Part shown: positions 6,784 through 62,894 of the stretch, piece after piece
Layout of the letters: every line of letters starts with the position of its first letter
Numbering within the stretch: the first letter of the stretch is position 1
Assembly: GCF_046105845.1 (NCBI RefSeq)
Contig: NZ_CP151004.1
DNA from: Escherichia coli
Lineage (GTDB): Bacteria > Pseudomonadota > Gammaproteobacteria > Enterobacterales > Enterobacteriaceae
Length of the DNA stretch: 64,000 nucleotides
Direction: 5' to 3' (one strand)
Position numbers and translations under genes: made by a program
Notes under the pieces: generated by a model
What the model saw: the letters and a program-made list of their open reading frames with translations, nothing else
Database searches by the model: none
Told to the model about the DNA's origin: nothing

Positions 6784-7359
6784 CTACGGCAGTGCTGGCC
6801 ATTCAATATCCTGTGCAGTTGACGTATCAACACGGTTCAGCAATACCCGATACTTTTTCCATGCTTCCAGCAACGAGATTTCTTCCTCCGTTGCAATTTC
6901 CAGATCTGCAGCATCCTGAAGCGGCGCAATATGCTCACTGGCTACCTGCATCAGGCTGTTTTTTGTTTCTTCCGCCTCCCGGATCCGGAACAGTTTTTCT
7001 GCTTCTGCATCTTTCACCCAGGCTGTGCCGTTCCACTTCTGAAACTCCCCTTCCGGCGATAACCAGGTAACATTTTCCGGTAACGGACCGAGTTCAGAAA
7101 TAAATAACGCGTCCCCTGACGCTACGTCATAAACCGTTTTACCCCGATGGTCTTCAACGAGATGCCACGATGCCTCATCACTGTTGAAAACAGCCACGAA
7201 GCCTGCCGGAATATCTGGCGGTGCAATATCGGTACTGTTTGCTGGCAGACCTGTATGAGGCGGAATATATGCGTCACCTTCACCAATAAATTCATTAGTT
7301 CCGGCCAGCAGATTATAAATTTTTATGGTCCGTGGTTGTTCACTCATTCTGAATGCCAT
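6784..7359 (-). CDS. tail fibre assembly protein
   Basis: 191 aa; Tfa-like sequence ending DIEWPALP; directly downstream of stf. Confidence 0.85.
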
Positions 7360-11442: not shown

Positions 11443-15203
<3,761 letters not shown>

Positions 15204-21889: not shown

Positions 21890-22107
21890 CAGAACCTCGC
21901 AAGCCGGTACCCGGGATGCCCCCGTCGTCGTGTAATCAGAGCCGCAAGGCGGCGCTCCCACTCCTGCCGTCCCTGCCGGATCTCAGATAAGTTTTCCATG
22001 GTCATCTGCTGACCATTAAAGGTGACGGATTTTCCGTCCAGCACCGCCATTTCAGCTTCCGTATAACGCTGAATCATGGCTTCGATATCATTCTGGTTCA
22101 TAACCAT
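21889..22107 (-). CDS. head-tail joining protein, lambda W-like
   Basis: 72 aa ending RRRGHPGYRLARF, cf. lambda W C-terminus RRRGPAGFYV. Confidence 0.75.
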   Translation of the reverse strand: MVMNQNDIEAMIQRYTEAEMAVLDGKSVTFNGQQMTMENLSEIRQGRQEWERRLAALITRRRGHPGYRLARF

Positions 22108-24200
22108 CCTCCGGAAGTCAGCCAGGGGTTAACATCGTCAGTTACTGTTTTCTTCCGTTTTTGTTTTTTAACAGGCGTGGATACCGGTTCCGGTGTGGGT
22201 GACGGTTCGGTACTGTCCGGGACACACTCCAGCCAGGTTTCCCGGCTCGCCCACTCCGGTGCATCCGGCCAGCGGATCTTTTCGTATCCATGCAGAATGA
22301 CCAGAGCCTCGGCATACACCATCAGGTCAAAAGCTTCGTTGGCACCGCGACCCGGCTTACTCCATTTCCCGTCACTGCTCCGCTCTTCATACGTCAGTTC
22401 GTCGTAAAACCAGCTCCCCAGCCAGTCAGGGAAATGCACATAGCCGGGACCTGGCGAGTCACGCCATAACGCGTTATTCACCCGGTCTTTCAGGGCATCC
22501 GTCTGAAGAAGCCAGAGCGGTACATCACCTGCGGCCTGCGCCCGTCGGCCCGTTCGTCCGGTGTTATCAGGGAATGTACGGGTGATCAGTTTTGCGCGCC
22601 GGATGCTGTCGCCCTTAAACAGGTAAATACGTTTACCAAGGCCATCACGACGGCAACGACGCCAGAATTTATAGGCATTATCAGTGACTCCGTCTTCACC
22701 GCCGGAGTCCACCGCCATTGCCATCAGTCGCATTTGTTGAGAAGGATCGGAGGCCAGCGGCCAGCTTTTATGAAAAACATCCGTCAGCAGGACATCCCAG
22801 TCTTCCGGATAGCTGGCCGGATCAATTCGCTGGCTCTCCCCGTCGCTGTCACCGCGCAATGACTGCGTGATGTTGTAACGATCAATAATCCAGCGTTCGC
22901 CACGGCTGCCATAGCCCGTTACCTGAACCACAAAACGGCGATGACGTCCCGCCTGCACATCAACTGTCGCCACCAGGAAATTAACGCCATCCGGCACACT
23001 GCGGGAAGGAACTGGCTCTGCCCGCTGCTCAAGCAGTTCACTTTTTCGTTGCTCCATGCTGGCACGGGGAAGATAAGGTAATCCCCAGTCGGTATTGATA
23101 ACCGTCTTGAGTGTTTCTTCACTTCCGGTTGTCTCGTATTCCTGTTCTGCAGCAAGCAGTTTGTAAACGAGTTGCGAGAGTGTCTGGTAAGCAGCTGCCG
23201 GACCCTCCATCCAGAATGACGCAATACGTGAGCGTCGGGGATCACCATAACGACTGCCATCCGCATTGATGGATTCACCATCCCGCAACCAGACCCCACG
23301 TCCGTTCAGCTCACGTTTTTGTTCAGGCATAATCCGTCCTGAACAGGAAGGACACTGAATATAAGCCGCCTCACTTGCCAGCACGGGATCGGCAATATCA
23401 CGGAAACCAGCAACCACATCGCCGCAGGGCTGAAAATACTCACCACAGTGTGGACAGGGCCAGTACCAGCGACGGCGATCGCCACGGTTATAGAGCGACA
23501 GTATCCCCGTGGTTGGTGGAGCCTCATGCGGTGAAGTCCGTCGCCATTTCACATCCTTCACATCCCTGCCGGGGGAACTCTCCACCAGCGTCATACCACT
23601 GGACATAAATGTGGTGGTACGTTTTGAGGCAAGAGAGAAGGCATCCCCCTCGCCATCAATATCTTCCGGAAAACGGTCATAATCCGTCAGCGCCACGCAT
23701 TTATAATCTGATGAGGACATGATATTGACTGACGGCCAGCCGATTTTCAGGTAGTTGCCAGCAAGGAATGTTCTGTCATAAACGTTGTTGTCATTTTTGT
23801 TCGGACTCAGGCGACTGACCACTTCCGGGCTGACGCGAAACGTTCTGGCAAGTCGTTTTTTGGAGTGTTCGCGGGCTTTTTCCTCCGTCATCTGAATGAT
23901 CAGCATATCAGCAGGATCGCAAATCACGTTGTAAATCACCCAGCCGTCAATCAGGCCGATAGTCTTGCCAGTTCGTGCCGGGCCAACAAATATCACTGCG
24001 TCGTATTCACGCGAGGCCAGGCAGTTCATCGGCTCAATAACATACGGTGCCACCAGCGGATCCCACGGGACTGAGTTCCCGGCCCCCATGGGCACCCGCA
24101 TATACTGAGCAACGGCATCAGCAACCCGCATTCGTCTCGGTGCGCGAAGGATATAACCTGAATCGGTTCGTGCTGCCTTTGCGGTTTCCTGATTCAGCAT
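22098..24200 (-). CDS. terminase large subunit (lambda A family)
   Basis: 700 aa; Walker A-like VGPARTGKT near the N-terminus; gene order after the small subunit. Confidence 0.85.
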   Translation of the reverse strand: MLNQETAKAARTDSGYILRAPRRMRVADAVAQYMRVPMGAGNSVPWDPLVAPYVIEPMNCLASREYDAVIFVGPARTGKTIGLIDGWVIYNVICDPADMLIIQMTEEKAREHSKKRLARTFRVSPEVVSRLSPNKNDNNVYDRTFLAGNYLKIGWPSVNIMSSSDYKCVALTDYDRFPEDIDGEGDAFSLASKRTTTFMSSGMTLVESSPGRDVKDVKWRRTSPHEAPPTTGILSLYNRGDRRRWYWPCPHCGEYFQPCGDVVAGFRDIADPVLASEAAYIQCPSCSGRIMPEQKRELNGRGVWLRDGESINADGSRYGDPRRSRIASFWMEGPAAAYQTLSQLVYKLLAAEQEYETTGSEETLKTVINTDWGLPYLPRASMEQRKSELLEQRAEPVPSRSVPDGVNFLVATVDVQAGRHRRFVVQVTGYGSRGERWIIDRYNITQSLRGDSDGESQRIDPASYPEDWDVLLTDVFHKSWPLASDPSQQMRLMAMAVDSGGEDGVTDNAYKFWRRCRRDGLGKRIYLFKGDSIRRAKLITRTFPDNTGRTGRRAQAAGDVPLWLLQTDALKDRVNNALWRDSPGPGYVHFPDWLGSWFYDELTYEERSSDGKWSKPGRGANEAFDLMVYAEALVILHGYEKIRWPDAPEWASRETWLECVPDSTEPSPTPEPVSTPVKKQKRKKTVTDDVNPWLTSGGWL

Positions 24201-24691
24201 TACTCCTCCTGCTGTAATTCCTCCTCATCATCCGCACCTGCTTCGGTCACCCGCAGGGCTATCTGATCGCGCAGATCATCAATAATGGACTGAACACGGC
24301 TCACAGCGGCAGGCTGCAGGCCGCAGTCACGTTCCAGAATATCCGGTAATGTCTCCAGCACCTGCACGACCGCTTTTGCCCAGATGGCAAACTCCCGTCT
24401 GACATCACTGGCCGGAATGAGTTGTGCCGTTTCCTGTTCGAACTTAAGACGCTCACGTTCAGACTGATACCAGGCTTTGCGTTCATGTGGATCCATTTCG
24501 CCCTCAGCAACCGGCGGTGGTAACCCCATAAATTCAGTCAGAATATCGGTCAACCGGTATAGCTTGAGTTTGTCATGTCCACCAGCGGGACGAATGTTTT
24601 TCAGTCTTGCCACGACAGTCTGGCGGTGCAGACCAGATAAAGCCGCCAGTTGATTAATATTCAGCACCAGGTTTTTCAACTCATGATCCAT
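24200..24691 (-). CDS. terminase small subunit (lambda Nu1-like)
   Basis: 163 aa; N-terminal wHTH-like MDHELKNLVLNINQLAALSGLHRQTV; immediately upstream of the large subunit. Confidence 0.7.
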   Translation of the reverse strand: MDHELKNLVLNINQLAALSGLHRQTVVARLKNIRPAGGHDKLKLYRLTDILTEFMGLPPPVAEGEMDPHERKAWYQSERERLKFEQETAQLIPASDVRREFAIWAKAVVQVLETLPDILERDCGLQPAAVSRVQSIIDDLRDQIALRVTEAGADDEEELQQEE

Positions 24692-47862: not shown

Positions 47863-49287
47863 TTACTTACGTGTTTCAACTATATTCAGCCCCTTATAAA
47901 GGCTTTGATGGATATATACAGAACCAGTATTTGGCAACATTAAATCAGCATCTTCACATCGGAATCTAGCCGTACCGGAATTGCCCAACCGGACACCAAT
48001 CACAGAAGCATTAAATAGAGTTTTCATCAATTCACGAGAAGTATAGCGCTTACAAAGGTCAGGCGCTTTCTCTTCAATCTTACTGATGAATTCTTCTGTA
48101 GAATTATATCTATGCTGCGTCTGACGTAAAGATTCCAATAGCTCACCAAAATGAGGGTAGAGCCTTTTGTATTCTTGTTTTAAGTCCTCAACTTTCCAAG
48201 CGCTGTACCGTTCTTCAGCTATTCTAATTATATCCTTTTTTATTTCAGAAGCATTAGCATCACAGCGTTTTTGGCATTCTTGCAAAAACTGAATAACTTC
48301 TCTTGGGCGCAAAAATGTGCGCTTCACCAAATAGTTAAACGGTGAAATACTCCCTCTCATTTCACCTTCCTCAAAAATATCATCTATAGTTATATTTTCC
48401 GGCAATCTGGCGTTCACCATATCTTTCAACAACTCTGGTGTCCAGATTATTTCTTCTTCAATTGCTCGGTGTTTATCTTTATCATCAAATTCCAGCCCTT
48501 GATAAATATCAGAGCGTAAAAATGTTACAATATGAATACCTTTGGCTCTAGTATCAGAATAACTATCATTAATATCTTTTGTTGCCTTCAACAAGCCAAT
48601 CAAAAGGCTTTTGGCATCATCCGATCCATCCCAAGAATCATCTAATCGATCAGTGGCAATTAGCACCCCAATATCTGTACAAATTTCTTTAAGCTCGTCA
48701 AGGATGATTTTTATTATTTGAGGTGTCAATGGTGCTTGCGAAGCATCCTTATTAAACCCCACAGCATATCCGAAAGCCTCAAAATTGAATGAACTTAATC
48801 CCGAGAGTAACTTCCTTGCAGTTCCCAAAGTAGTTGGCGATATACCACCATAGTTATCAGAAACAAATTTTTTAATTCTAGCAAGGGCCTCCCGAGGTCT
48901 TTTCTCTGAAAATTGCCTACCTGACCTAATAATTTCTGCCGCAGCCTCAACAGCTATTGCAAATTTCCAAGCATTACAATGTGCCTGTTCGGGTAACAAC
49001 CCTTGCTCTTGATATTGTTTTAATGCTCCCCAAGCATACTGGTCTGGGGTCATGACATTTACGATAACGTCCTGCCCATATTTTGCTCTTACCAACCTTG
49101 GGAGTTGGGTAAAGATGGATGATTTCCCAGCCCCCTTTCTTCCAAGAAAATGGGCACTATAGAAACTCAGAGCTTGCTCAACTTGAGGAGTATTGATGAA
49201 ATAATCAGCCAACCTTCTATCAGCTTCAGCATCGACAGTACCAAAGTTGAGTCCCTTAACTGTAAGGCCTAACGCATCTAACCGCAC
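47863..49287 (-). CDS. P-loop NTPase of unknown family; accessory cargo between portal gene and cos
   Basis: 474 aa, GTG start with AAGGA RBS; Walker A GRKGAGKSS; possible Walker B LIATDRLDD; AT-rich by eye. Confidence 0.6.
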   Translation of the reverse strand: MRLDALGLTVKGLNFGTVDAEADRRLADYFINTPQVEQALSFYSAHFLGRKGAGKSSIFTQLPRLVRAKYGQDVIVNVMTPDQYAWGALKQYQEQGLLPEQAHCNAWKFAIAVEAAAEIIRSGRQFSEKRPREALARIKKFVSDNYGGISPTTLGTARKLLSGLSSFNFEAFGYAVGFNKDASQAPLTPQIIKIILDELKEICTDIGVLIATDRLDDSWDGSDDAKSLLIGLLKATKDINDSYSDTRAKGIHIVTFLRSDIYQGLEFDDKDKHRAIEEEIIWTPELLKDMVNARLPENITIDDIFEEGEMRGSISPFNYLVKRTFLRPREVIQFLQECQKRCDANASEIKKDIIRIAEERYSAWKVEDLKQEYKRLYPHFGELLESLRQTQHRYNSTEEFISKIEEKAPDLCKRYTSRELMKTLFNASVIGVRLGNSGTARFRCEDADLMLPNTGSVYIHQSLYKGLNIVETRK

Positions 49288-49772: not shown

Positions 49773-50108
49773 ATGAACAATATTCCCCCTATACCACAGT
49801 TAGGAATTTATGTCTCAAAAATCGATCCCACCCTACGTATCACTGTAACCGATGTTGATATTGTTGATGGTGAGGATGATTCTCCTGATGATGAATTGTT
49901 TTATTTAGTCCACTGGATCGAGGGGGAAGATGAAAGTGATATGACAGCAATGGGATTTGAGCTAGACCCAGTAGAGTGGCAGGCTTTCGTTGAATCTGAG
50001 CAATTAGTGTTTGAGCGTGATCCGTACATGGATTCAATCCCCGAAAATTCAAACTTGGCAAAGATTCGGGATTTTCTCATGAAGACTAAACAGAATGATC
50101 ATTCGTAA
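49773..50108 (+). CDS. hypothetical acidic protein
   Basis: 111 aa, D/E-rich, no motif recognised. Confidence 0.4.
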   Translation: MNNIPPIPQLGIYVSKIDPTLRITVTDVDIVDGEDDSPDDELFYLVHWIEGEDESDMTAMGFELDPVEWQAFVESEQLVFERDPYMDSIPENSNLAKIRDFLMKTKQNDHS

Positions 50109-50885: not shown

Positions 50886-53300
50886 TTAATATAGGTTCCG
50901 CCACTTATCATCTTCCTTCAGACGCTGGTTCCGATAGAAGATACGCAGGCCTGCTCCTGACGGAATACTGCCGCCGCGAAGGAGCAAATCGACTTCTTTC
51001 TCGCTGCCATCAAATCCCCTGGACTTCAGTTCATAGACGAGCTGCTGTCGCTGATGGTCTGTAATTCGCTGTTTGTAGTCTTTACGCCGTTTCGGTTTCA
51101 CCTGGCGTAACCTTGCAGCCAGTTCCCGGCGCTCTTTTTTGCTCATACTGTGCAGGTAATCGTGCAACTCCTTGTCATTCATACGGGTAATATCCGTTCT
51201 GGAGTCCGCATCAGCTGATTTGTCTTTCCCTTGTTGGTTCAAATTTTCAGCAAGGGGACAGTTATTGCCACGAGTCCAAGGGGCGCAAGCGCCCTGGTCG
51301 GCTGCCGCCTCCTGAACGTCAACGACCTTACGAACCATTTTCCATTTCATTGCATGAGTGCAGATCTTGCCCTGTACAATGGGTGACCAGATGCCATAAA
51401 TACGAATACCGTGATCGCCATAAGCGGTCGGCTCTTCGTTAATTTCATAAGCTGTTCTGATAAGGTGATATTTGCGGGGAACCAGTACGCCGCCCTGCTT
51501 CATGATGTAGGTGGCAAAACAGCCAGCATCAGCGGCAGCCAGGATGGCATCAAGGCGCGGGTCATCCAGTACCGGCGCACCTGCTTTTTTGTCACCCTGT
51601 TGCCTTGCCGCCTGACCAGCCAGCAAGCGAAGTTCACGGTACGCCTGACGCCCCGGAATACCAAAGAAGCGGAACTGCTGAACACGATGCAGAGACGCCC
51701 AGGCATTAACGTATTCGGCGTTATCACGCAGGGATTTACCCGTTTCCTTGCTGATCTCGCCAGCCAGACCACGTCCGTCAATGTTCTTACTGATGTATTT
51801 CGCGATGTAGCTTGTCGGCGTTCCTTTGCGCGGGTTTATCAGCTCAGACTTAAAGCGTGGACCCGTGTTATTGCCCAGTTCCTCGCGGTCTTCACGGATG
51901 GCAAACTTACGCAACAATGCAGTAATGGCGCGGCGGTCTTTTTTGCGCATGAAACACATGAGATGCCAGTGCACAGTACCGTCATGGTGCGGCTCAGCCA
52001 CCCGCACGCCATACCAGCGCAACCCGGCTTTGTGCATAGCCTTACGAAATGCAGCAAACATGCCGACCAGATAATCGCTGCTTTGTCTTACCGTCGCATT
52101 TGTCCAGGTTGGGTTTGGTCTGCCGTTATTGAGCGTAGAATGGAAACGTGACGGACAGGTAATGGTGTAGAAAACGGCGCAGTCACCACGCATTTCCGCG
52201 ATAAGCTCCAGACCTTTAACACAGGCCATCATCTCATTGCGGCGGTGCGCCGGGTTGCTGCTGCTGGCGTTTACCACGTCTTCCATATCCAGCGTGTCGC
52301 CGTCTTCGTTCACCAGTTCATGAGAACGGAAAAACTCCAGCGACTTGCGGCGCTGCTCACGTTTATGCGTCACTGCTTCATAGCTGACATAGGGAGATGC
52401 TTTTTTGCTGACCAGGCAGACAGCACGCAACTGCTCTTCCCGCCATTCGCAACGTATCTTCCACAATTTTCGATACCACCAGTCGGCGCAAAGCATACGT
52501 GCCAGCGAACCCGGTATGAGTTCATAGGGCACGGGTTTGCGGCGGTTTCTTTTCCGACGGAGTTTCTCAAACGCAGGCGGGATAACATCCAGACGCAGGG
52601 TTTCCGCTGCCACCTTTTCCCATGTCTTGCGGATTTCTTCTGGCTTAACGTCATCGGTGGCATACAAATCACCACAAGCGGCCTCAAGACACATGCTCAT
52701 ATGCGCTGCTACCAAGGTGGACAGGCGTTTTACCTGATCCTGACTCATTTCAGGCAGGATCAGCAGGCCCTCAAGCCCTTGATGGCTTGCCATAAAACGG
52801 AAAGAAGCGGATAGCTGACTGTCGCGTACATACTCCAGTCGCTCCAGACATGACTTAATCGTCTCACGCAAATAGCGGGAATAAGCCTTTGGCCTGCCCA
52901 GGCTGCTGAAGTATTCGATACGTTGCATCAGCGGCTTGCTGATGTGGGTGGGCTGGGCGCTGACGTCCGCCAGAATGACCATGTCCGGGTTAAAACGCTG
53001 CTGCTCATGCGCCAGCTTTGCCCGACTAATGAGATTATCCTGCTCCATTTCGCGCTGGACAGGATCACGGGATTCATTAAAGAAATAACGCTCCCAGACC
53101 TGCTCACTCAGTGCATCGCGGCGCAGCTGTTCCTGCTCGTTATCGGCAGCGTACAGAGTGATCATGTTTGAAAGTGCAGACTCCGGCGCAACTTCCGCCG
53201 GGTCCAGATAAGGGTTAATGGCCTTTTTCGGGCCGTTCCATGAAAATGCTGCAGCGGCCTCGTTAAAGCCGCTAGAGTTGCTCATATCATCATGACTCAT
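50886..53300 (-). CDS. A: replication initiation endonuclease (P2/186 gpA-like)
   Basis: 804 aa; rolling-circle motif region HWHLMCF. Confidence 0.85.
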
Positions 53301-54154
53301 ACACGCACCTCGTACACAGCAGAACTATCCACGCCACGCGAAGGATCAAATCCCACCCAGCAGCGCGCCCCGGAAACAGCAATGATTTCTGTTGCAGATT
53401 TACTCTCGCCAGCCGACACGCCGATGCTGCGTTTTGCCTTGATGTAGTGGTGAGTGAAATTGCGATACAGCGAACGAATCAGGGATGTGTCACTGTTAGA
53501 AACAATGACCGGATGACCTTCAGATGATCGATGTTCAAGAACGGATGCCAGGTGATACTGGTCATCCTCAGTGAAGCCATCAGTGTGATAGCCGGAAAAC
53601 GTACCGTCATAAGGCGGATCGCAATACACCACATCCCCCGCCTTCAACATCGCCAGCGTTTCATCAAAGCTGGCGCAGATAAACGTTGCTCGCTGGGCTT
53701 TTTCTGCAAATTTGCGAATTTCTTTTTCAGGGAAATACGGATTTTTATAATTCCCGTAGGGAATGTTGAAATGCCCGCTCTTGTTATAGCGACATAACCC
53801 ACGGTAACCATGACGATTGAGATACAGGAAATATACCGCTTTCATGAAATCAGTAATTTCAGTGGAGTAATTAAACTCCTGCCTTATGTTGTAATAAGCC
53901 ACCTCCCTGTTTGCTTCCTCAAATAAAGCTCTGGCACGAGATATAAACGCCTCGCAATCAGCAGCAACCTTTTTATAGAGGTTGATTAAATCAGGATTAA
54001 TATCCGCAACAAGATAGCTGGGGTAATCCGTCTCTATCATCACAGCACAAGAACCCGCGAAAGGTTCAACCAGTCGCGGGCCAGCAGGAAGGTATTTTTT
54101 CAGTTCTGGCATAATGGCGGTTTTATTACCCGCCCATTTCAGGATGGTGCTCAT
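53297..54154 (-). CDS. DNA adenine methyltransferase (Dam-like)
   Basis: ORF 53297-54214; motif [12 protein letters not shown] and motif IV DPPY. Confidence 0.85.
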
Positions 54155-54378
54155 ACAGCACCTCCGTTGTAATGTTTGCCTTTCAGCTCTGCGATTTCCT
54201 GACAGGTAATGCAAAGCTGCACACCCGGAATGGCGCGACGTCGTGCTGGCGGAATTGGTGCTTCACACTCAATGCAAAGCACGCGGGATACGCCCGGCGT
54301 TTTGGCGCGGGCAGCACGGATATGACGCTGGCGTTCTTCTTCAACGCGCTGCTGTACGAGATCCATTGCATCAGCCAT
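54151..54378 (-). CDS. TraR/DksA-family C4 zinc-finger protein
   Basis: CIECEAPIPPARRRAIPGVQLCITC. Confidence 0.75.
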   Translation of the reverse strand: MADAMDLVQQRVEEERQRHIRAARAKTPGVSRVLCIECEAPIPPARRRAIPGVQLCITCQEIAELKGKHYNGGAV

Positions 54379-54617
54379 CAGTGGATCTCCTGCGCTTCGT
54401 TCTGGATTGCTTCAGCAGTCACACGCAGCAGTTCTGCCGCTTCGACGTGGTTTAGCTGGCGGGATGTGATATGAGACGCCAGGCTATCAAGGCGAGCTGC
54501 CATTGCTTCAGCCCTTGCCCGGCGTTCTTCCAGACGAGCCTCTGTCAGTAAAATATTAAGCCCTGCATCATCCGGTCCGGTTTTAGTCATGAGGGTTTCA
54601 ATATTACGCATAATCAA
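54378..54617 (-). CDS. hypothetical early protein
   Basis: 79-aa ORF in the early operon. Confidence 0.4.
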   Translation of the reverse strand: MIMRNIETLMTKTGPDDAGLNILLTEARLEERRARAEAMAARLDSLASHITSRQLNHVEAAELLRVTAEAIQNEAQEIH

Positions 54618-55733: not shown

Positions 55734-55955
55734 CTAATTAAGGTTTAGATTGCATTCTGAAAGCGCATCAACGGTCATGGCTGCTATGTTGATCATCACT
55801 TTTTCGCGTTTTTTATCTTTCCGCAGACGGTGACGGATAAGACGTCCATCAGCCAACATGTCATTGATAGTATCGATGGATAGCCCTGTCAGCTCGCTAT
55901 AACGTTCAATAGTCACATGAGGCGTGGTAAGAGTGATTGAAATGTTAGGTTTCAT
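55734..55955 (-). CDS. Apl/Cox-type excisionase/regulator
   Basis: 73 aa, first gene of the lytic operon, divergent from cI. Confidence 0.55.
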
Positions 55956-56080
55956 GATGCAACATTCCTCGTTTAATGTTGATTAATCAGGACGAATACG
56001 GATCGTTTGTATTTTGTGAACATCATAAACATACGATCGCATAATGAAATCGTCAAGACAAAAGTTCACTTGGAGTGACC
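55956..56080. promoter_or_regulatory. immunity switch region between apl-like gene and cI
   Basis: Intergenic; imperfect inverted repeat gatcgtttgtat...atacgatc (56001-56039). Confidence 0.4.
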
Positions 56081-56650
56081 ATGAATTTGGAGAAAGGCGG
56101 ACGAGGCGCTATAGAGCGCATGGTAGAAGCATATGGCTTCAAGACTCGACAGGCGTTGTGCGATCACTTAGGAATCTCTAAAAGTACTCTCGCCACACGC
56201 TATATGCGTGACTCATTCCCTGCTGAATGGGTAATCCAGTGCGCACTTGAAACGGGCGCCTCGCTTAACTGGCTCACGACCGGACATGGTTCAAAGCAAA
56301 CTTCAGGTAATACAAATACTATGGAAGTCGTTAAATATGTATTATCTGATGGAACCTTGCAGGAAGATGGTTTTTATATTTTCGATAAAGAATTTCTACC
56401 ATCTACGCTCAAAAATCCGTTTGTAATCACCGATAACAATTCCGTTTTTATTTGCGATAAAGAGTTTAACGATATTCGTGACGGCAAATGGGTAATAAGT
56501 ATTGATGCCGAAGTAACAATCCGCGATATCACTCGTTTACCTGGTGGAAGAATCTTAGTTGAAGGTGGAAATAGGGCTTTCGAATGTAAAAAAGAAGAAA
56601 TCGAAATTATTGGAAAAATTATAAGCATAACAGTTAAGTACTTTGAGTAA
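56081..56650 (+). CDS. cI: CI-type immunity repressor (186 CI-like)
   Basis: ATG at 56081 after GGAG; N-terminal HTH (…AYGFKTRQALCDHLGISKSTLATRY…) and CI-like C-domain. Confidence 0.75.
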   Translation: MNLEKGGRGAIERMVEAYGFKTRQALCDHLGISKSTLATRYMRDSFPAEWVIQCALETGASLNWLTTGHGSKQTSGNTNTMEVVKYVLSDGTLQEDGFYIFDKEFLPSTLKNPFVITDNNSVFICDKEFNDIRDGKWVISIDAEVTIRDITRLPGGRILVEGGNRAFECKKEEIEIIGKIISITVKYFE

Positions 56651-56700: not shown

Positions 56701-57624
56701 ATGTCAACTCAAAAATTAAAATTTAGCCATATCAAAAACGATCTGAAAGCAATAGTTATGCAGAATCGTGGAGGGCAAAAAGTTATTGAGCGTATACTCC
56801 TAGCCTATGGCTTCAAGTCACGACAGGCATTATGTAATCATCTAGGTATTTCCCAAAGTACTATGGCCAACAGATATGCACGTAATACCTTTCCTGCAGA
56901 TTGGGTTGTTATATGTTCCATAGAAACAGGAGCATCAATTGAATGGTTAGTTCTTGGTTCAGATACTGCTCCTTCATCAGAGCAATATTCTGAAAAACAT
57001 GCCGTTAATGGCCTTTGCAATGAAGTATACATTCCCACTATAAAGTTCGATAATGAAAAACTCATGAATTTTAACCGAGGGGGTAAGGCAACAATAGAAC
57101 GAATTGTCGAGGCTTACGGTTACAAAACGCGCCAAGCATTAGCTGATCACCTAGGTATTTCAAAAAGCACATTAGCCACACGATACATGCGTGACATTTT
57201 TCCTGCAGACTGGGTTTTGCAGTGTGCAATAGAAACGGGCCATTCTATTGAATGGATTTCATTTGGTACAGGAGAAATGAAAAACACAAAAAATAAAGAT
57301 ACTTTAACATTAGTGAAAAAAGTATTAATCAATGGCAAGTTAATAAATGATGGCTCATATTTATTTGACCCATGCTTTCTACCTTCCAATTTAAAAAATG
57401 CATTCGTAGTATCTACCGAAGACTCTGAATTAATATGTGAAATGGGTTTTAAAGATGTACATGATGGTAAGTGGCTAGTAAATATTGATGGAGAGAATTC
57501 ATTTAGAATGATAACTCGACTACCTAAAGGACGAGTTTATATTTCATCCCAAAATCACTCTTTTGAATGTTCGCTTACAGACATTGAGTTTATTGCAAAA
57601 GTTATTATAAGTTGTTTACATTAA
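56701..57624 (+). CDS. CI-repressor paralog with a duplicated N-terminal HTH domain
   Basis: 307 aa; two tandem copies of GG..IER...AYG.K.RQAL..HLGIS.ST.A.RY.R..FPA.WV, then a CI-like C-domain; AT-rich. Confidence 0.6.
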   Translation: MSTQKLKFSHIKNDLKAIVMQNRGGQKVIERILLAYGFKSRQALCNHLGISQSTMANRYARNTFPADWVVICSIETGASIEWLVLGSDTAPSSEQYSEKHAVNGLCNEVYIPTIKFDNEKLMNFNRGGKATIERIVEAYGYKTRQALADHLGISKSTLATRYMRDIFPADWVLQCAIETGHSIEWISFGTGEMKNTKNKDTLTLVKKVLINGKLINDGSYLFDPCFLPSNLKNAFVVSTEDSELICEMGFKDVHDGKWLVNIDGENSFRMITRLPKGRVYISSQNHSFECSLTDIEFIAKVIISCLH

Positions 57625-57649: not shown

Positions 57650-59167
57650 GTGAAATGTGGTGATTGTAATTGGAACTGGGATGAAGAAACTACCTTTATA
57701 TTAGACGACGAAGAGGAAATTCTTTCCAAAGACAAACTTAATCGGAGACACTATGCAGAATATCTATATTTTTATCTTAAGGAAAAGGGGCAAAAGAACA
57801 ACACGGTAATCAACCTTAATGCAGAATGGGGAGCTGGTAAAAGTTTTTTCATAAAGAGATTTTATAACTCAATAAAAGATGCACACCCATGCGTTTACAT
57901 TGATGCCTGGAAGCAAGACTTTTCTGATGATGCATTTTTAACCCTTTTTTCTTCTTTGTCACAACAATTGCAAACATATGCAGGAAAACTTGATGCTCGA
58001 TTGATACAAAGCGGCCATGCTATCGGACGCTTTACAAAAGGTGTTCTACCTGAAATCATATCTGGCCTAATCAAGACTTATGCAGGAGTAGATAACGTAG
58101 GTGATATAGCCAAAGAAGCCTCATTAATAATGCTGAAGGAACACCAGGAAAAACTGAAGAGCATTAAGGTATTAAAAAAAGAACTAACGTTATGGTCTAG
58201 GTTGGCATATGAAAATAGTTTTTCATGTCCTATATTTATCTTTATAGATGAATTAGACAGATGCAGGCCAGATTATGCAATTTCTCTTTTAGAGATTGTT
58301 AAACATATATTCGATATTAAAAATTTTGTCTTTATTATTGCTACTGACACAGATCAATTACAACATTCAATCAAGAATGTTTACGGTAATGATTTTTCCG
58401 CAAATGACTATTTAGGCCGTTTTTTTCATAGAAGATTTACTTTAAAACAACCTGAACTTAAAGATTTAATTAATGGTGTTATTGGTGATTATATTGGTAC
58501 CGATTTTGAAAATATCACATCAAAAACATACCCACTAACAGCAACATTAGAAGACTTTTCAATAAATATTTCCAACGTATTTGAAGCATTTGGGTTAAAT
58601 CTAAGAGACTCAATCCGAAATACTGAAAGGTTAATAGACATTCTTAAATCTGATTTAGTCAAAAAGAAAGTAGATTATATTTTTATAATTTCGCTAATGA
58701 TTATATATGATAAGGATCGTCAAATTATAGATGGACTAATTGGTCGAAGAAATGCAGCACAACGTTTCACTGATTCGATAAAGCAAAGCTCCAATTTAAA
58801 AGGTGTTTCTCAAGCCATCCTTGAATTAAATCTTGATACAAATCAGCAAAGAATAGGTGTCAATTATATCTATAGAACGGCGAGCAGTAGATTATTCATC
58901 TCACAGATCGAGCCCAAAATAAATTTAACATTAATAAATTACTTAGATGTTGCATTGTATTTTATTAATAATATAAACATGCTTAAATCAAGTATAAAAA
59001 ACAATGGGCAAAATTCACTAATGATTATATCTCAACAAGGCCCTATTGATGGTGATACAGCTATAAAGTATTTGCAAGGAGCCCTTATAGAGAATGGTCT
59101 GAATACATCTTTTTATGCCTTACATAATTACATTGAATTAATTGAACTGGCCACATCATTTGATTAA
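57650..59167 (+). CDS. KAP-family P-loop NTPase
   Basis: 505 aa, GTG start after GGAG; Walker A NAEWGAGKS; Walker B IFIFIDELDRCRPDY; AT-rich by eye. Confidence 0.7.
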   Translation: MKCGDCNWNWDEETTFILDDEEEILSKDKLNRRHYAEYLYFYLKEKGQKNNTVINLNAEWGAGKSFFIKRFYNSIKDAHPCVYIDAWKQDFSDDAFLTLFSSLSQQLQTYAGKLDARLIQSGHAIGRFTKGVLPEIISGLIKTYAGVDNVGDIAKEASLIMLKEHQEKLKSIKVLKKELTLWSRLAYENSFSCPIFIFIDELDRCRPDYAISLLEIVKHIFDIKNFVFIIATDTDQLQHSIKNVYGNDFSANDYLGRFFHRRFTLKQPELKDLINGVIGDYIGTDFENITSKTYPLTATLEDFSINISNVFEAFGLNLRDSIRNTERLIDILKSDLVKKKVDYIFIISLMIIYDKDRQIIDGLIGRRNAAQRFTDSIKQSSNLKGVSQAILELNLDTNQQRIGVNYIYRTASSRLFISQIEPKINLTLINYLDVALYFINNINMLKSSIKNNGQNSLMIISQQGPIDGDTAIKYLQGALIENGLNTSFYALHNYIELIELATSFD

Positions 59168-60306: not shown

Positions 60307-60442
60307 TAACCACCACTGACCACCAACCCAACTTATTGTTTTTACTCTAAGTTATTGTTTTCATTAACCCGTTTACATAAATGGGTAATTTGTATTGTTG
60401 AATAGCATCTGATGAGAAATTGATGCTAATATTATAAACATA

Positions 60443-60616
60443 CTAGATTAAATCAATCTTGATATCATAGCTTTCAAGACCAGTCATTTTTTCCCGTGCA
60501 GTAAACTGGATACTGGTAACTTCTTTCCCGGTCTTTTTCTTAAGCTCAATGATTTTTTTTGTTATATATTCAGAAATATCTGCTTCTGTTTTTGTTTTTA
60601 ACTCTTCAATGTTCAT
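60443..60616 (-). CDS. GnsA/GnsB-family small protein
   Basis: ORF 60443-60709; MNIEELKTKTEADISEYI...FTAREKMTGLESYD matches remembered GnsB. Confidence 0.7.
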   Translation of the reverse strand: MNIEELKTKTEADISEYITKKIIELKKKTGKEVTSIQFTAREKMTGLESYDIKIDLI

Positions 60617-60788
60617 CATTTCCTCTTTTAGTCTGTTATGACTTTCCTGGTACACAGTAGTGTCAATTATATGGAGCAAACGTATAAAAGATAAGATGAA
60701 ACATCGCAATAATCAACATACGACGGTCTAAATTTCACACAAACAGATAAAGATGATTATCATTTATTATCAATGCATTAGAATCAAA

Positions 60789-61019
60789 TCAATTCAAGAG
60801 TCTCATTGCTGCTTCCAGAATTTCTTCTGAAGTTACATGTCGATCCGCTGCTACATAAATGACTTTATGATCTCCGGTCAGAGATGGAAACCCTGCAGCC
60901 ATTACAGTGAGGTGTGTTGTTTCGCCATTTGGATATTCACGCATGATGGTGTTAACTCCGGTCATCACTGGCACTACCATTGCTGGTTCAGAGTTAAAAA
61001 AAACTATTATTTTTTTCAT
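60789..61019 (-). CDS. hypothetical small prophage protein
   Basis: ORF 60789-61058, internal ATG at 61019. Confidence 0.35.
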   Translation of the reverse strand: MKKIIVFFNSEPAMVVPVMTGVNTIMREYPNGETTHLTVMAAGFPSLTGDHKVIYVAADRHVTSEEILEAAMRLLN

Positions 61020-61290
61020 AATGTTACCGTAATATGTGAGTATCCATCGACTAGACACTAAGCAAAAAAGCTCCCGAAGGAGCCTTCATTTTCACTTTCT
61101 TAAATCTAACGACAGACGGCTAACATTTAAGTATTGTGAAATATTATCAAATGTAATCATCATTGATTTACAAAAGATACATTTTGCCCCGAAAGGATTC
61201 CTGTCAGAAACATCAAAAGATGATGTTCTATACTGAGAACCATGGCAACACGGGCATCTAAAGTGAATATGGTTTGTAATATTTTCTACC

Positions 61291-61503
61291 TCAAAGTGCC
61301 ACTACATGAACAGCCGCGGGGCCTTTAGGTCCGTTCTCAATACCAAATTCGACTTCCTGATTCTCAGTTAACGTTTTGAAATCGTTGCTCTGAATAACTG
61401 AGAAATGGACAAACACATCTTTGCTACCATCTTTCGGCGTGATGAAACCAAAACCTTTTTCAGGGTTAAACCATTTCACTAAACCAGTCATTTTGTTAGA
61501 CAT
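61291..61503 (-). CDS. CspA-family cold-shock protein (CspI/CspB-like)
   Basis: [23 protein letters not shown]...VHFSVIQ RNP motifs; long AT-rich leader. Confidence 0.9.
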
Positions 61504-61866
61504 CATTATTACCTTTTGAAGAAGTTAGCCCTTGGGCAGAATGGTCCGAAAAAAAATATCAGAGAGAAAAACCAACAAGGAGATCTCAAGAGGTACAAAT
61601 AATAAAATTATAACAATGACTGCTTCAGATAATTTTGTAACAAACCAGAACACCATTAACGCATGATTAACCAACCATAGCAAGGATTACTTTTGTAAAG
61701 AAAAACACACGAATGAAACAATAGCTTTATTTATTAATAAAACGTGTCATTCTGTCTAATGACCTTTTATCTTACCCTTAAGATTTCAAGGATTTTGACT
61801 CATGGAAGAGTCCTTTTTATTTAAATTTCACATTCAGCGCTAAAAATAATCCGATTTAATATTAAT

Positions 61867-62894
<1,028 letters not shown>

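Follow-up and report, generated by a model that had tools for sequence, protein, structure and literature searches.

An orphan dam gene and a TraR-like gene in the early operon of a P2-family prophage, and a GATC contrast among its relatives

Two early genes of a 186/Fels-2-like prophage of the P2 family, an orphan dam and a gene for a TraR-like protein, lie in the Escherichia coli DNA analysed here (the window, a stretch of 64,000 nucleotides). Both are ordinary and already annotated. The best explanation of their role, to which we assign a probability of about 0.65, is that the phage Dam would methylate the phage's own rapidly replicating DNA, lifting the classical penalty on GATC, and that a TraR protein resembling Orf82 of P2 would remodel host transcription, both being early lytic accessory genes. 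Taken alone, the two genes are not new: reference genomes already carry their annotation, the pair is 100% identical to the annotated genes of E. coli E2348/69 and occurs in about a quarter (1240 of 5426) of the complete E. coli genomes, and its TraR orthologue has been characterised. The useful part is a comparative result on GATC: among closely related phages of one family, the frequency of this site differs in an all-or-none manner, in step with the presence or absence of a single optional cassette, the methylase gene.

Both genes were recovered on the minus strand, at exactly the coordinates first reported for them. In order of transcription this strand carries apl, cII, fil, DUF5347, DUF2732, the TraR gene, dam and A, with cI on the opposite strand, and the succession from the switch to A agrees with that of phage 186, P2, RE-2010 and SEN8. 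The early-operon location proposed in the preliminary description is corroborated by these neighbours, which are those of 186, P2 and RE-2010; the order given there, methylase and then zinc-finger gene, has to be reversed, as transcription runs through the TraR gene first and then dam. The coupled chain begins with the DUF2732 gene (54378..54611, minus strand; PF10809, E=1.5e-28), placed as in P2 (orf80), 186 and RE-2010, and a TGATG overlap at 54378 joins it to the start of the TraR/DksA-family C4 zinc-finger gene (54151..54378, minus strand; 75 aa; PF01258, TIGR02419, phrog_54). The stop of the latter overlaps the start of dam (53297..54154, minus strand; 285 aa; PF02086, TIGR00571) in the segment 54151..54165 of the same strand, where an ATGA at 54154-54151 is preceded by the Shine-Dalgarno sequence GGAGGTG (54165-54159) within the TraR gene. 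In 186 and SEN8 the junction sequence found here stands before the exonuclease gene. A further overlap (53297..53311, minus strand), with ATGA at 53300-53297 and GAGGTG at 53311-53306 within dam, links the stop of dam to the start of gene A, which lies directly downstream (50886..53300, minus strand) and encodes the rolling-circle replication endonuclease (PF05840 Phage_GPA, E=4.4e-128; 'replication endonuclease' in the E2348/69 annotation). According to the 186 record, the translation of A apparently requires that the preceding gene be translated right to its end. A longer methylase reading frame with a TTG start (53297..54214, 305 aa) was rejected in favour of the ATG at 54154, since this start has the Shine-Dalgarno sequence just given, is favoured by the N-terminal alignment with E. 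coli Dam and agrees with that of RefSeq.

The slot that separates the TraR gene from A is variable. It holds orf83 in P2, an exonuclease gene, DUF5405 and a PAPS-reductase-like gene in 186, an exonuclease gene together with dam in SEN8, and dam alone in the present prophage. Prophages of the Fels-2/RE-2010 type and P2-like prophages of Klebsiella carry the same dam gene in the same slot, and nothing of substance sets their Dams apart from the present one; at the nucleotide level dam is 95-99% identical to Klebsiella and Salmonella phages and 100% identical to the E2348/69 gene, annotated 'DNA adenine methylase'. The prophage of retron-Ec67, which is related to 186, is reported to encode a Dam methylase function (Hsu et al. 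1990, as cited in PMC7826664). Homologues of the TraR gene, on the other hand, were found family-wide by homology search (170 phage records). A two-gene functional system of Dam and TraR was accordingly rejected, one gene being family-wide and the other optional, and what had earlier been treated as a pair is better described as syntenic neighbours, each an independent accessory gene.

The assignments made at first sight, a Dam-like methylase with a DPPY motif and a TraR/DksA zinc-finger protein, are borne out by PF02086, TIGR00571, PF01258 and TIGR02419, through strong, full-length family matches rather than chance reading frames. The phage Dam matches the D12 N6-adenine methyltransferase family PF02086 over profile positions 1-253 of 253 (E=2.8e-77; 260 bits against a cut-off of 22) and the NCBIfam family TIGR00571 'dam' with 325 bits (cut-off 115). 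Its catalytic motif IV, DPPY, occupies residues 179-182 (D179-P180-P181-Y182), and in an alignment of 22 sequences the D, the first P and the Y are invariant while the second P is kept in at least 90%. The AdoMet-binding motif I (FxGxG) reads F32-A-G34-S-C36, with C in place of the last G; S35 and C36 are kept in at least 90% of the alignment, and the fold is retained. The sequence finds PDB 2g1p/4gol with E=2e-73, and an AF2 model matches EcoDam structures with E=4e-26 and a TM score of 0.82. In comparison with EcoDam (PDB 2G1P, 4RTJ), the D12/alpha-class fold, the motif order and DPPY are shared, at 46% identity over 260 residues. In contrast, the phage protein scores 289 bits with the NCBIfam equivalog model of the host enzyme, below its cut-off of 441, and its gene sits in a lytic operon whereas that of EcoDam is a housekeeping gene.

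A search of the neighbourhood with Pfam, PADLOC, NCBIfam and PHROGs gave no cognate restriction endonuclease near dam, all neighbours being identified P2/186 early genes, and PADLOC ranks 'orphan methyltransferase' first among its models (E=3.8e-111). As no nuclease gene adjoins it, the methylase is an orphan and not part of a type II restriction-modification system, and the orphan status first ascribed to it holds. Other phage adenine methylases likewise come without a nuclease partner, among them T4 Dam, P1 Dmt and HP1 Dam. The first two are D12 homologues of the phage Dam (22-36% identity) whose genes lie in other genomic contexts, P1 Dmt being moreover a larger fusion protein, whereas HP1 Dam is a member of another Pfam family, PF05869.

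The predicted target of the phage Dam is GATC, the same as that of the host Dam. Of the seven EcoDam residues that contact GATC, whose roles are described in PMC4417163, six are identical (K9, Y119, L122, R124, P134 and Y138 correspond to K6, Y117, L120, R122, P132 and Y136 of the phage protein), and an alignment of EcoDam with 21 phage-type Dams shows no variation at these six. The seventh, N120, is replaced by R118. Since the phage Dam departs from EcoDam in this residue, in the FAGSC version of FxGxG, in a deletion of five residues after DPPY and in a disordered C-terminal tail of 25 aa, a shifted or relaxed specificity is conceivable.

The comparison of GATC content between carriers and Dam-less relatives provides additional, indirect evidence that the phage Dam acts on GATC in the phage's own DNA. 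Over whole genomes, the observed/expected ratio (O/E) of GATC is 0.20 in P2 and 0.13 in 186, neither of which has dam, against 1.03 in RE-2010 and 0.93 in the present prophage, where the depletion that would signal restriction pressure was therefore not seen; the gap between carriers and non-carriers amounts to about 100 sites genome-wide. A scan of IMG/VR with the TraR alignment returned near-identical loci only, and the diversity of the sample comes from scans seeded with P2 and 186 proteins. Among the loci so collected (186 in number), dam-positive ones (n=83) have O/E values of 0.83-1.39 and dam-negative ones (n=103) of 0.13-0.60, two disjoint ranges. Carriers thus have about as many GATC sites as expected, and their Dam-less relatives 3-8-fold fewer. 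Over 28 sequence clusters, which are not 28 independent events, the contrast gives p=1.8e-5 (Mann-Whitney). Gene A alone shows it (1.01 in dam-positive against 0.13 in dam-negative loci), as does the 2-kb stretch upstream of the TraR gene (0.75-1.33 against 0.14-0.39), and among the 16 palindromic 4-mers only GATC differs strongly. Members of the family that are more distant agree with this picture: normal GATC recurs in HP1 with its unrelated PF05869 Dam (O/E 0.95), and the Pseudomonas phage phiCTX, for which no methylase is annotated, has an O/E of 1.41. The K139 'methyltransferase' orf8 has no Pfam methylase match and was not counted. In the same window, lambdoid DNA has a GATC O/E of 1.06 and no Dam was seen in the part of it that lies within the window; therefore, not every Dam-less phage purges GATC.

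Dam status is fixed within each of the four gene-A types in the sample, so that few independent lineages stand behind the association. This confounding with gene-A lineage, together with the FAGSC motif I, the replacement of N120 by R and the 5-aa deletion after DPPY, could be taken to mean that the methylase is inactive or does not recognise GATC, and that the contrast reflects nothing but the shared ancestry of the lineages. We consider this extremely improbable. DPPY and the six contact residues have stayed invariant in a family that diverges to 70% identity, and thousands of genomes carry the gene in intact form. Furthermore, the compositional difference is specific to GATC, normal GATC reappears in HP1 alongside a Dam of another family, and without selection the depletion in Dam-less lineages would fade. 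We infer the direction of cause in the association, and regard the odds as even that the Dam cassette decides between two regimes of genome composition in P2-family phages of Dam- and MutH-positive hosts, one without it, in which GATC is purged 3-8-fold, and one with it, in which GATC stays at expectation.

Avoidance of GATC in enterobacteriophages and its explanation by MutH go back to McClelland (1984) and Deschavanne and Radman (1991), as summarised in PMC5014478 and PMC4687349, which name MutH acting on under-methylated DNA as the cause; in 2015 the reason was still called unclear (PMC5014478). The contrast between carriers and non-carriers provides a simple experimental handle on this old question. 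If it is causal, and not already described for the P2 family, it would amount to a natural knock-in/knock-out system that could decide between MutH, SeqA and restriction.

In our favoured reading, derepression would lead to expression of a translationally coupled chain, from DUF2732 through the TraR gene and dam to A, and Dam would be made just ahead of and along with the rolling-circle initiator A. As an active orphan it would methylate the adenine of GATC, and its job would be to keep the fast-replicating phage DNA fully methylated. Full methylation would in turn keep off host machinery that recognises GATC in its unmethylated or hemimethylated state, for which MutH is the classical candidate and SeqA or GATC-cutting restriction enzymes are possible, and the selection against GATC borne by Dam-less relatives would thereby be removed. 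Both the timing of Dam and the link to MutH or SeqA are what we infer; the GATC contrast fits MutH, SeqA or a GATC restriction enzyme alike as the selective agent. The GATC contrast between relatives with and without Dam indirectly supports the suggestion of an epigenetic protection of phage DNA.

The accompanying suggestion of anti-restriction is not the best reading, given that the predicted target is that of the host Dam and that all hosts seen for the phage Dam family are Enterobacterales. In its classical form, Dam would pre-methylate progeny DNA against type II enzymes of the DpnII/MboI type, which cut GATC, in the next host. An orphan methylase without nuclease partner agrees with this, the shielding of exported DNA by orphan phage methylases is a known strategy (PMC12707154), and restriction pressure would likewise yield GATC depletion in Dam-less relatives. 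However, we judge it unlikely: no GATC endonuclease is encoded nearby, and the literature blames MutH acting on under-methylated DNA (PMC5014478, PMC4687349). The Enterobacterales hosts, moreover, are presumably Dam-positive, and would already largely methylate phage GATC. The sole difference between anti-restriction and our favoured explanation is which nuclease threatens.

The same host activity bears on how the phage enzyme may be detected. Since the host already methylates GATC, and since the gene lies, by synteny, in a repressor-controlled lytic operon, methylation calling in a lysogen versus a cured strain is uninformative, and we caution that such a methylome comparison will not reveal the phage Dam.

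Control of the operon should reside in the lysis/lysogeny switch (55734..56650, both strands), if repressor control operates here by analogy with 186. The switch comprises an apl/cox-like gene (55955-55734, minus strand; phrog_575 Cox-like, E=1.4e-30), the CI repressor gene (56075-56650, plus strand; repressor domains PF07022 and PF16452) and a candidate early promoter, a consensus match only (TTGACG-17-TATGTT, 56056-56028, minus strand), in an arrangement that parallels pR and CI of 186. A terminator like tR1 of 186 was sought in the 61-bp gap upstream of DUF2732, which gave a weak hairpin only (z=-0.24), and a search for att direct repeats at the prophage ends gave no exact repeat with a length of at least 10 bp. 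GATC sites at 56001 and 56035 adjoin the -10 boxes of the candidate promoters for the early operon and for the repressor gene, and translation of dam is coupled to that of the replication initiator A. A regulatory or epigenetic role might be read from this, in which Dam would set methylation at GATC in phage promoters, the origin or cos and so time the switch, replication or packaging. Dam methylation times P1 pac and IS10. Nevertheless, two GATC sites in about 119 bp are statistically unremarkable, the promoters are consensus matches only, host Dam would methylate the identical sites, and a site-specific function leaves the genome-wide gap of some 100 sites unexplained. We thus hold such a role to be quite improbable.

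Other early genes are fil, a cell-division inhibitor gene, and the TraR-like gene, and the place of dam among these host-directed genes suggests another scenario. A lytic excess of Dam could hyper-methylate the host chromosome and disable strand discrimination in mismatch repair and sequestration of oriC, beside the shutoff exerted by Fil and the TraR-like protein; E. coli cells that overproduce Dam do become mutators (cited in PMC5014478). Such a takeover makes no prediction about the GATC content of the phage genome itself, and we find it highly improbable. Protection of the phage's own DNA remains the reading that we prefer for Dam.

The TraR-like protein, for its part, is expected to bind RNA polymerase as an orthologue of P2 Orf82 and 186 orf81. 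It matches PF01258 (zf-dskA_traR) with E=3.1e-11 and 43.5 bits (cut-off 24.9), the phage/plasmid TraR family TIGR02419 with 65.8 bits (cut-off 59.7) and phrog_54 with E=1.4e-30, and does not reach the equivalog cut-offs set for F TraR and for YbiI. Identity is 68% to 186 orf81, 46% to P2 Orf82 and 39% to F TraR. With these proteins and lambda Orf73 it shares its length, an arrangement of helix, C4 zinc knot and helix, the residues D3 and D6, and the early-operon position of the P2 family. The cysteines of its C4 motif (CxxC ... CxxC; C35, C38, C56 and C59) align with those of TraR. In an AF2 model (pLDDT 81), the zinc knot lies between helices 4-25 and 57-71, and the top-ranking PDB structure is that of TraR on RNA polymerase (6n57_M, E=4.9e-4).

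Modulation of host RNA polymerase, as proposed in the preliminary description, has experimental backing from the P2 orthologue and would extend to the present protein by analogy. Orf82 binds E. coli RNA polymerase and competes with DksA, inhibits rrnB P1 with an IC50 of 250 nM and complements a dksA deletion (PMC9239242). In the same work, binding to the secondary channel and a ppGpp-free effect on initiation are described for P2 Orf82, lambda Orf73 and TraR. By this route, the N-terminal helix of the TraR-like protein, with D3 and D6, is expected to enter the secondary channel of host RNA polymerase and to mimic DksA plus ppGpp; rRNA and ribosomal-protein promoters would be shut down and host growth slowed during lytic development. 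The 186 record lists the orthologue of this gene as 'not essential'. Within the DxxDxA motif, D3 and D6 are present and position 8 is V rather than the A of TraR and 186 orf81. P2 Orf82, with I at this position, is active though weaker, and the change has been proposed to weaken activity (PMC9239242).

Two minus-strand genes lie within 53297-54378 in the ORF list, a TraR-like ORF of 75 aa (54151..54378) and a methylase ORF listed with a TTG start (53297..54214, 305 aa). The TTG start was set aside in favour of the ATG at 54154, which is preceded by a GGAGGTG Shine-Dalgarno 5 nt upstream and agrees with the RefSeq annotation and with an alignment to E. coli Dam (EcoDam) from residue 4; the resulting phage Dam has 285 aa. 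This protein covers the entire PF02086 profile (D12 N6-adenine methyltransferase, E=2.8e-77), with DPPY at residues 179-182, while the TraR-like protein matches PF01258 (zf-dskA_traR, E=3.1e-11). Each also scores above its curated NCBIfam cut-off, phage Dam for TIGR00571 ('dam') and the TraR-like protein for TIGR02419 ('phage/conjugal plasmid TraR family'). These matches confirm the Dam-type methylase and the TraR/DksA-type gene of the preliminary description, which was right on their adjacency but not on their order, since transcription runs from the TraR gene into dam. E. coli O127:H6 E2348/69 carries the 1082-bp pair at 100% identity, annotated as 'DNA adenine methylase' and 'TraR/DksA family transcriptional regulator', and the pair occurs in 1240/5426 complete E. 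coli genomes; identity reaches 99.4% with Klebsiella prophages and 95% with Salmonella phage RE-2010. The exact phage Dam and the exact TraR-like protein are each found on at least 1000 contigs. Thus, both genes belong to known families and the exact allele, annotated in reference genomes, is already known.

The genes on the same strand follow the order Cox/Apl-like excisionase, CII (PF06892), Fil, DUF5347, DUF2732, TraR-like gene, dam and A, the latter encoding the 804-aa replication endonuclease (PF05840; 50886..53300). The opposite strand carries a 186-type CI repressor, and the integrase lies beyond it. Judging from this gene order, common to 186, P2, RE-2010 and SEN8, the operon is the early lytic operon of these phages, as had been proposed. 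The slot between the TraR gene and A varies among relatives: it holds orf83 (DUF5405) in P2, an RNase T-like exonuclease, DUF5405 and a PAPS-reductase-like gene in 186, an exonuclease plus dam in SEN8, and only dam in RE-2010 and in the present 186/Fels-2-like prophage. Homology searches recovered TraR-like genes in 170 phage records across the family. As far as the compared sequences indicate, the TraR gene and dam are neighbours, not a system. Stop and start codons overlap, with internal Shine-Dalgarno sequences, at the DUF2732/TraR (TGATG), TraR/dam and dam/A (both ATGA) junctions. The junction 3' of the TraR gene is near-identical before dam or before the exonuclease, which fits cassette exchange at gene borders. 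In 186, translation of A appears to need translation through the end of the preceding gene (186 sequence record); by analogy, dam probably takes this coupling role here. The final codons of dam also serve as the Shine-Dalgarno of A. In the 90%-identity cluster containing phage Dam, the representative is an A protein of 804 aa. Related entries join Dam to A or to gpD (PF02086 with PF05840 or PF05954), and such fusions probably stem from gene calling or assembly at the ATGA overlap rather than being genuine.

The TraR-like protein is 68% identical to 186 orf81, 46% to P2 Orf82 and 39% to F-plasmid TraR. It keeps D3, D6 and all four cysteines, but the alanine of DxxDxA is V (I in P2 Orf82). In its model (pLDDT 81) a zinc knot lies between an N-terminal and a C-terminal helix, and the closest PDB match is TraR in complex with RNA polymerase. 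Purified P2 Orf82, whose gene is assigned to the early operon, and DksA compete for E. coli RNA polymerase; P2 Orf82 needs no ppGpp to inhibit rrnB P1 (IC50 250 nM), it complements the loss of dksA, and earlier work described growth arrest upon its over-expression (Gopalkrishnan et al. 2022, PMC9239242). These homologue experiments support the suggested modulation of host RNA polymerase, and the TraR-like protein most likely acts in the same manner as P2 Orf82, independently of Dam. The 186 orthologue is labelled 'not essential' in the 186 sequence record.

Phage Dam is 46% identical to EcoDam and matches EcoDam structures at E=2e-73. In a structure search, its AlphaFold model (pLDDT 72) matched EcoDam (E=4e-26, TM 0.82), followed by DpnM and T4 Dam, both GATC enzymes. 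In EcoDam, the first base pair is read by K9 and Y138, the third by L122 and P134, and R124 contacts the G of the fourth; Y119 intercalates and N120 hydrogen-bonds a base (PMC4417163). All of these except N120, which is R in every aligned phage-type Dam, are invariant across EcoDam and 21 phage-type Dams (70-95% identical). The phage family further differs from EcoDam in reading FAGSC at the FxGxG motif, in a 5-residue deletion directly past DPPY and in a conserved C-terminal tail of 25 aa, disordered in the model (residues 261-285; 53297-53371; pattern W.GFD..G.D.S..EVR). No nuclease partner was found near dam and the top PADLOC model is 'orphan methyltransferase', in agreement with the orphan status first assigned. 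Retron-Ec67, an element related to 186, is reported to have 'Dam methylase functions', judging by the title of Hsu, Inouye & Inouye 1990, which is cited in a study of a Klebsiella Fels-2-like prophage (PMC7826664).

GATC sites, first counted as a test for restriction pressure, are not depleted in this prophage (110 sites, observed/expected (O/E) 0.93) nor in Dam-carrying RE-2010 (116, O/E 1.03), whereas Dam-less P2 (25, O/E 0.20) and 186 (14, O/E 0.13) are. We sampled 240 related IMG/VR loci with three TraR-type queries, 186 loci remaining after filters, and assigned Dam presence by tblastn. Over the analysed region, O/E was 0.83-1.39 (mean 1.02, n=83) in dam-positive and 0.13-0.60 (mean 0.27, n=103) in dam-negative loci, ranges that do not overlap; the upper Dam-less values are due to cargo genes downstream of A. 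Gene A alone gave means of 1.01 versus 0.13, and for the 2 kb that precede the TraR gene the means per cluster were 0.75-1.33 versus 0.14-0.39. The contrast holds across 28 k-mer clusters (p=1.8e-5), with few independent gains or losses of dam behind it, since Dam status is fixed inside each of the four gene-A lineages sampled; TraR similarity cuts across these only partly. Among 16 palindromic 4-mers the strong difference is limited to GATC (0.32 in Dam-less versus 1.00 in Dam-carrying loci). TCGA also differs (0.60 Dam-carrying, 1.05 Dam-less; loci L009-L248). Distant relatives fit the pattern: Haemophilus HP1, with an unrelated PF05869 Dam, has O/E 0.95, and Pseudomonas phiCTX, annotated without a methylase, 1.41. 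Pseudomonas is not known to have Dam or MutH. No description of this dichotomy within the P2 family was found in the literature searched, whose coverage was incomplete, and it raises interest slightly beyond routine annotation.

GATC avoidance is a classical feature of enterobacteriophages (McClelland 1984), ascribed to the action of MutH on phage DNA that is under-methylated (Deschavanne & Radman 1991; both as summarised in PMC5014478 and PMC4687349). Phage DNA replication outpaces host Dam, and in 2015 the forces behind avoidance were still 'unclear' (PMC5014478). The simplest reading of the contrast, a correlation, is extra methylation: the dam cassette would add GATC methylation exactly during production of the rolling-circle initiator A, and with fully methylated progeny DNA the GATC penalty would be gone. 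The selective agent may be MutH, SeqA or a GATC-cutting restriction enzyme, all compatible with the data. Of the protective roles envisaged for the methylase, epigenetic protection of phage DNA is supported indirectly, through the contrast between Dam carriers and Dam-less relatives; anti-restriction in its classical form is not demonstrated. The suggested comparison of methylomes between lysogen and cured strain would be uninformative: GATC, the predicted target, is already modified by the host, and dam sits in a repressed lytic operon.

The P2/186-like prophage (about 25700-60380) appears inserted in a lambdoid, Qin-like prophage (flanks 22098-24691 and 60381-62894), with lambdoid terminase genes on one flank and gnsB/ynfN/cspI, cspA thermoregulator RNA, rzpQ and lysozyme on the other. 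This junction is absent from the complete RefSeq E. coli genomes of the collection; in E2348/69 the same prophage adjoins rcdA/ybjJ. Rfam matches to the left, in the lambdoid region, are IS009 and the isrC Hfq-binding sRNA (6818-7016, 11759-11881). Between the portal and DinI/Tum-like genes, a cargo slot (47863-49287 and 49773-50108) carries a 474-aa Sll1717-family P-loop ATPase (NF047389, E=2.5e-84), weakly matching an 'anti-phage protein' model, and a 111-aa ORF; the slot holds a DprA-like gene in E2348/69 and a retron in Klebsiella phage 4LV2017. Two further cargo genes (56701-57624 and 57650-59167) separate the CI repressor from the integrase: one encodes another CI-like protein, in which tandem HTH domains (two) are combined with a CI C-terminal domain, and the other a KAP-family P-loop NTPase matching candidate defence family PDC-S20 (E=9e-78). 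The 119-bp switch region has two GATC sites (56001 and 56035), a number not statistically unusual, one of which abuts the -10 hexamers of consensus-predicted early and repressor promoters (GCGATCG-TATGTT, CGATCG-CATAAT).
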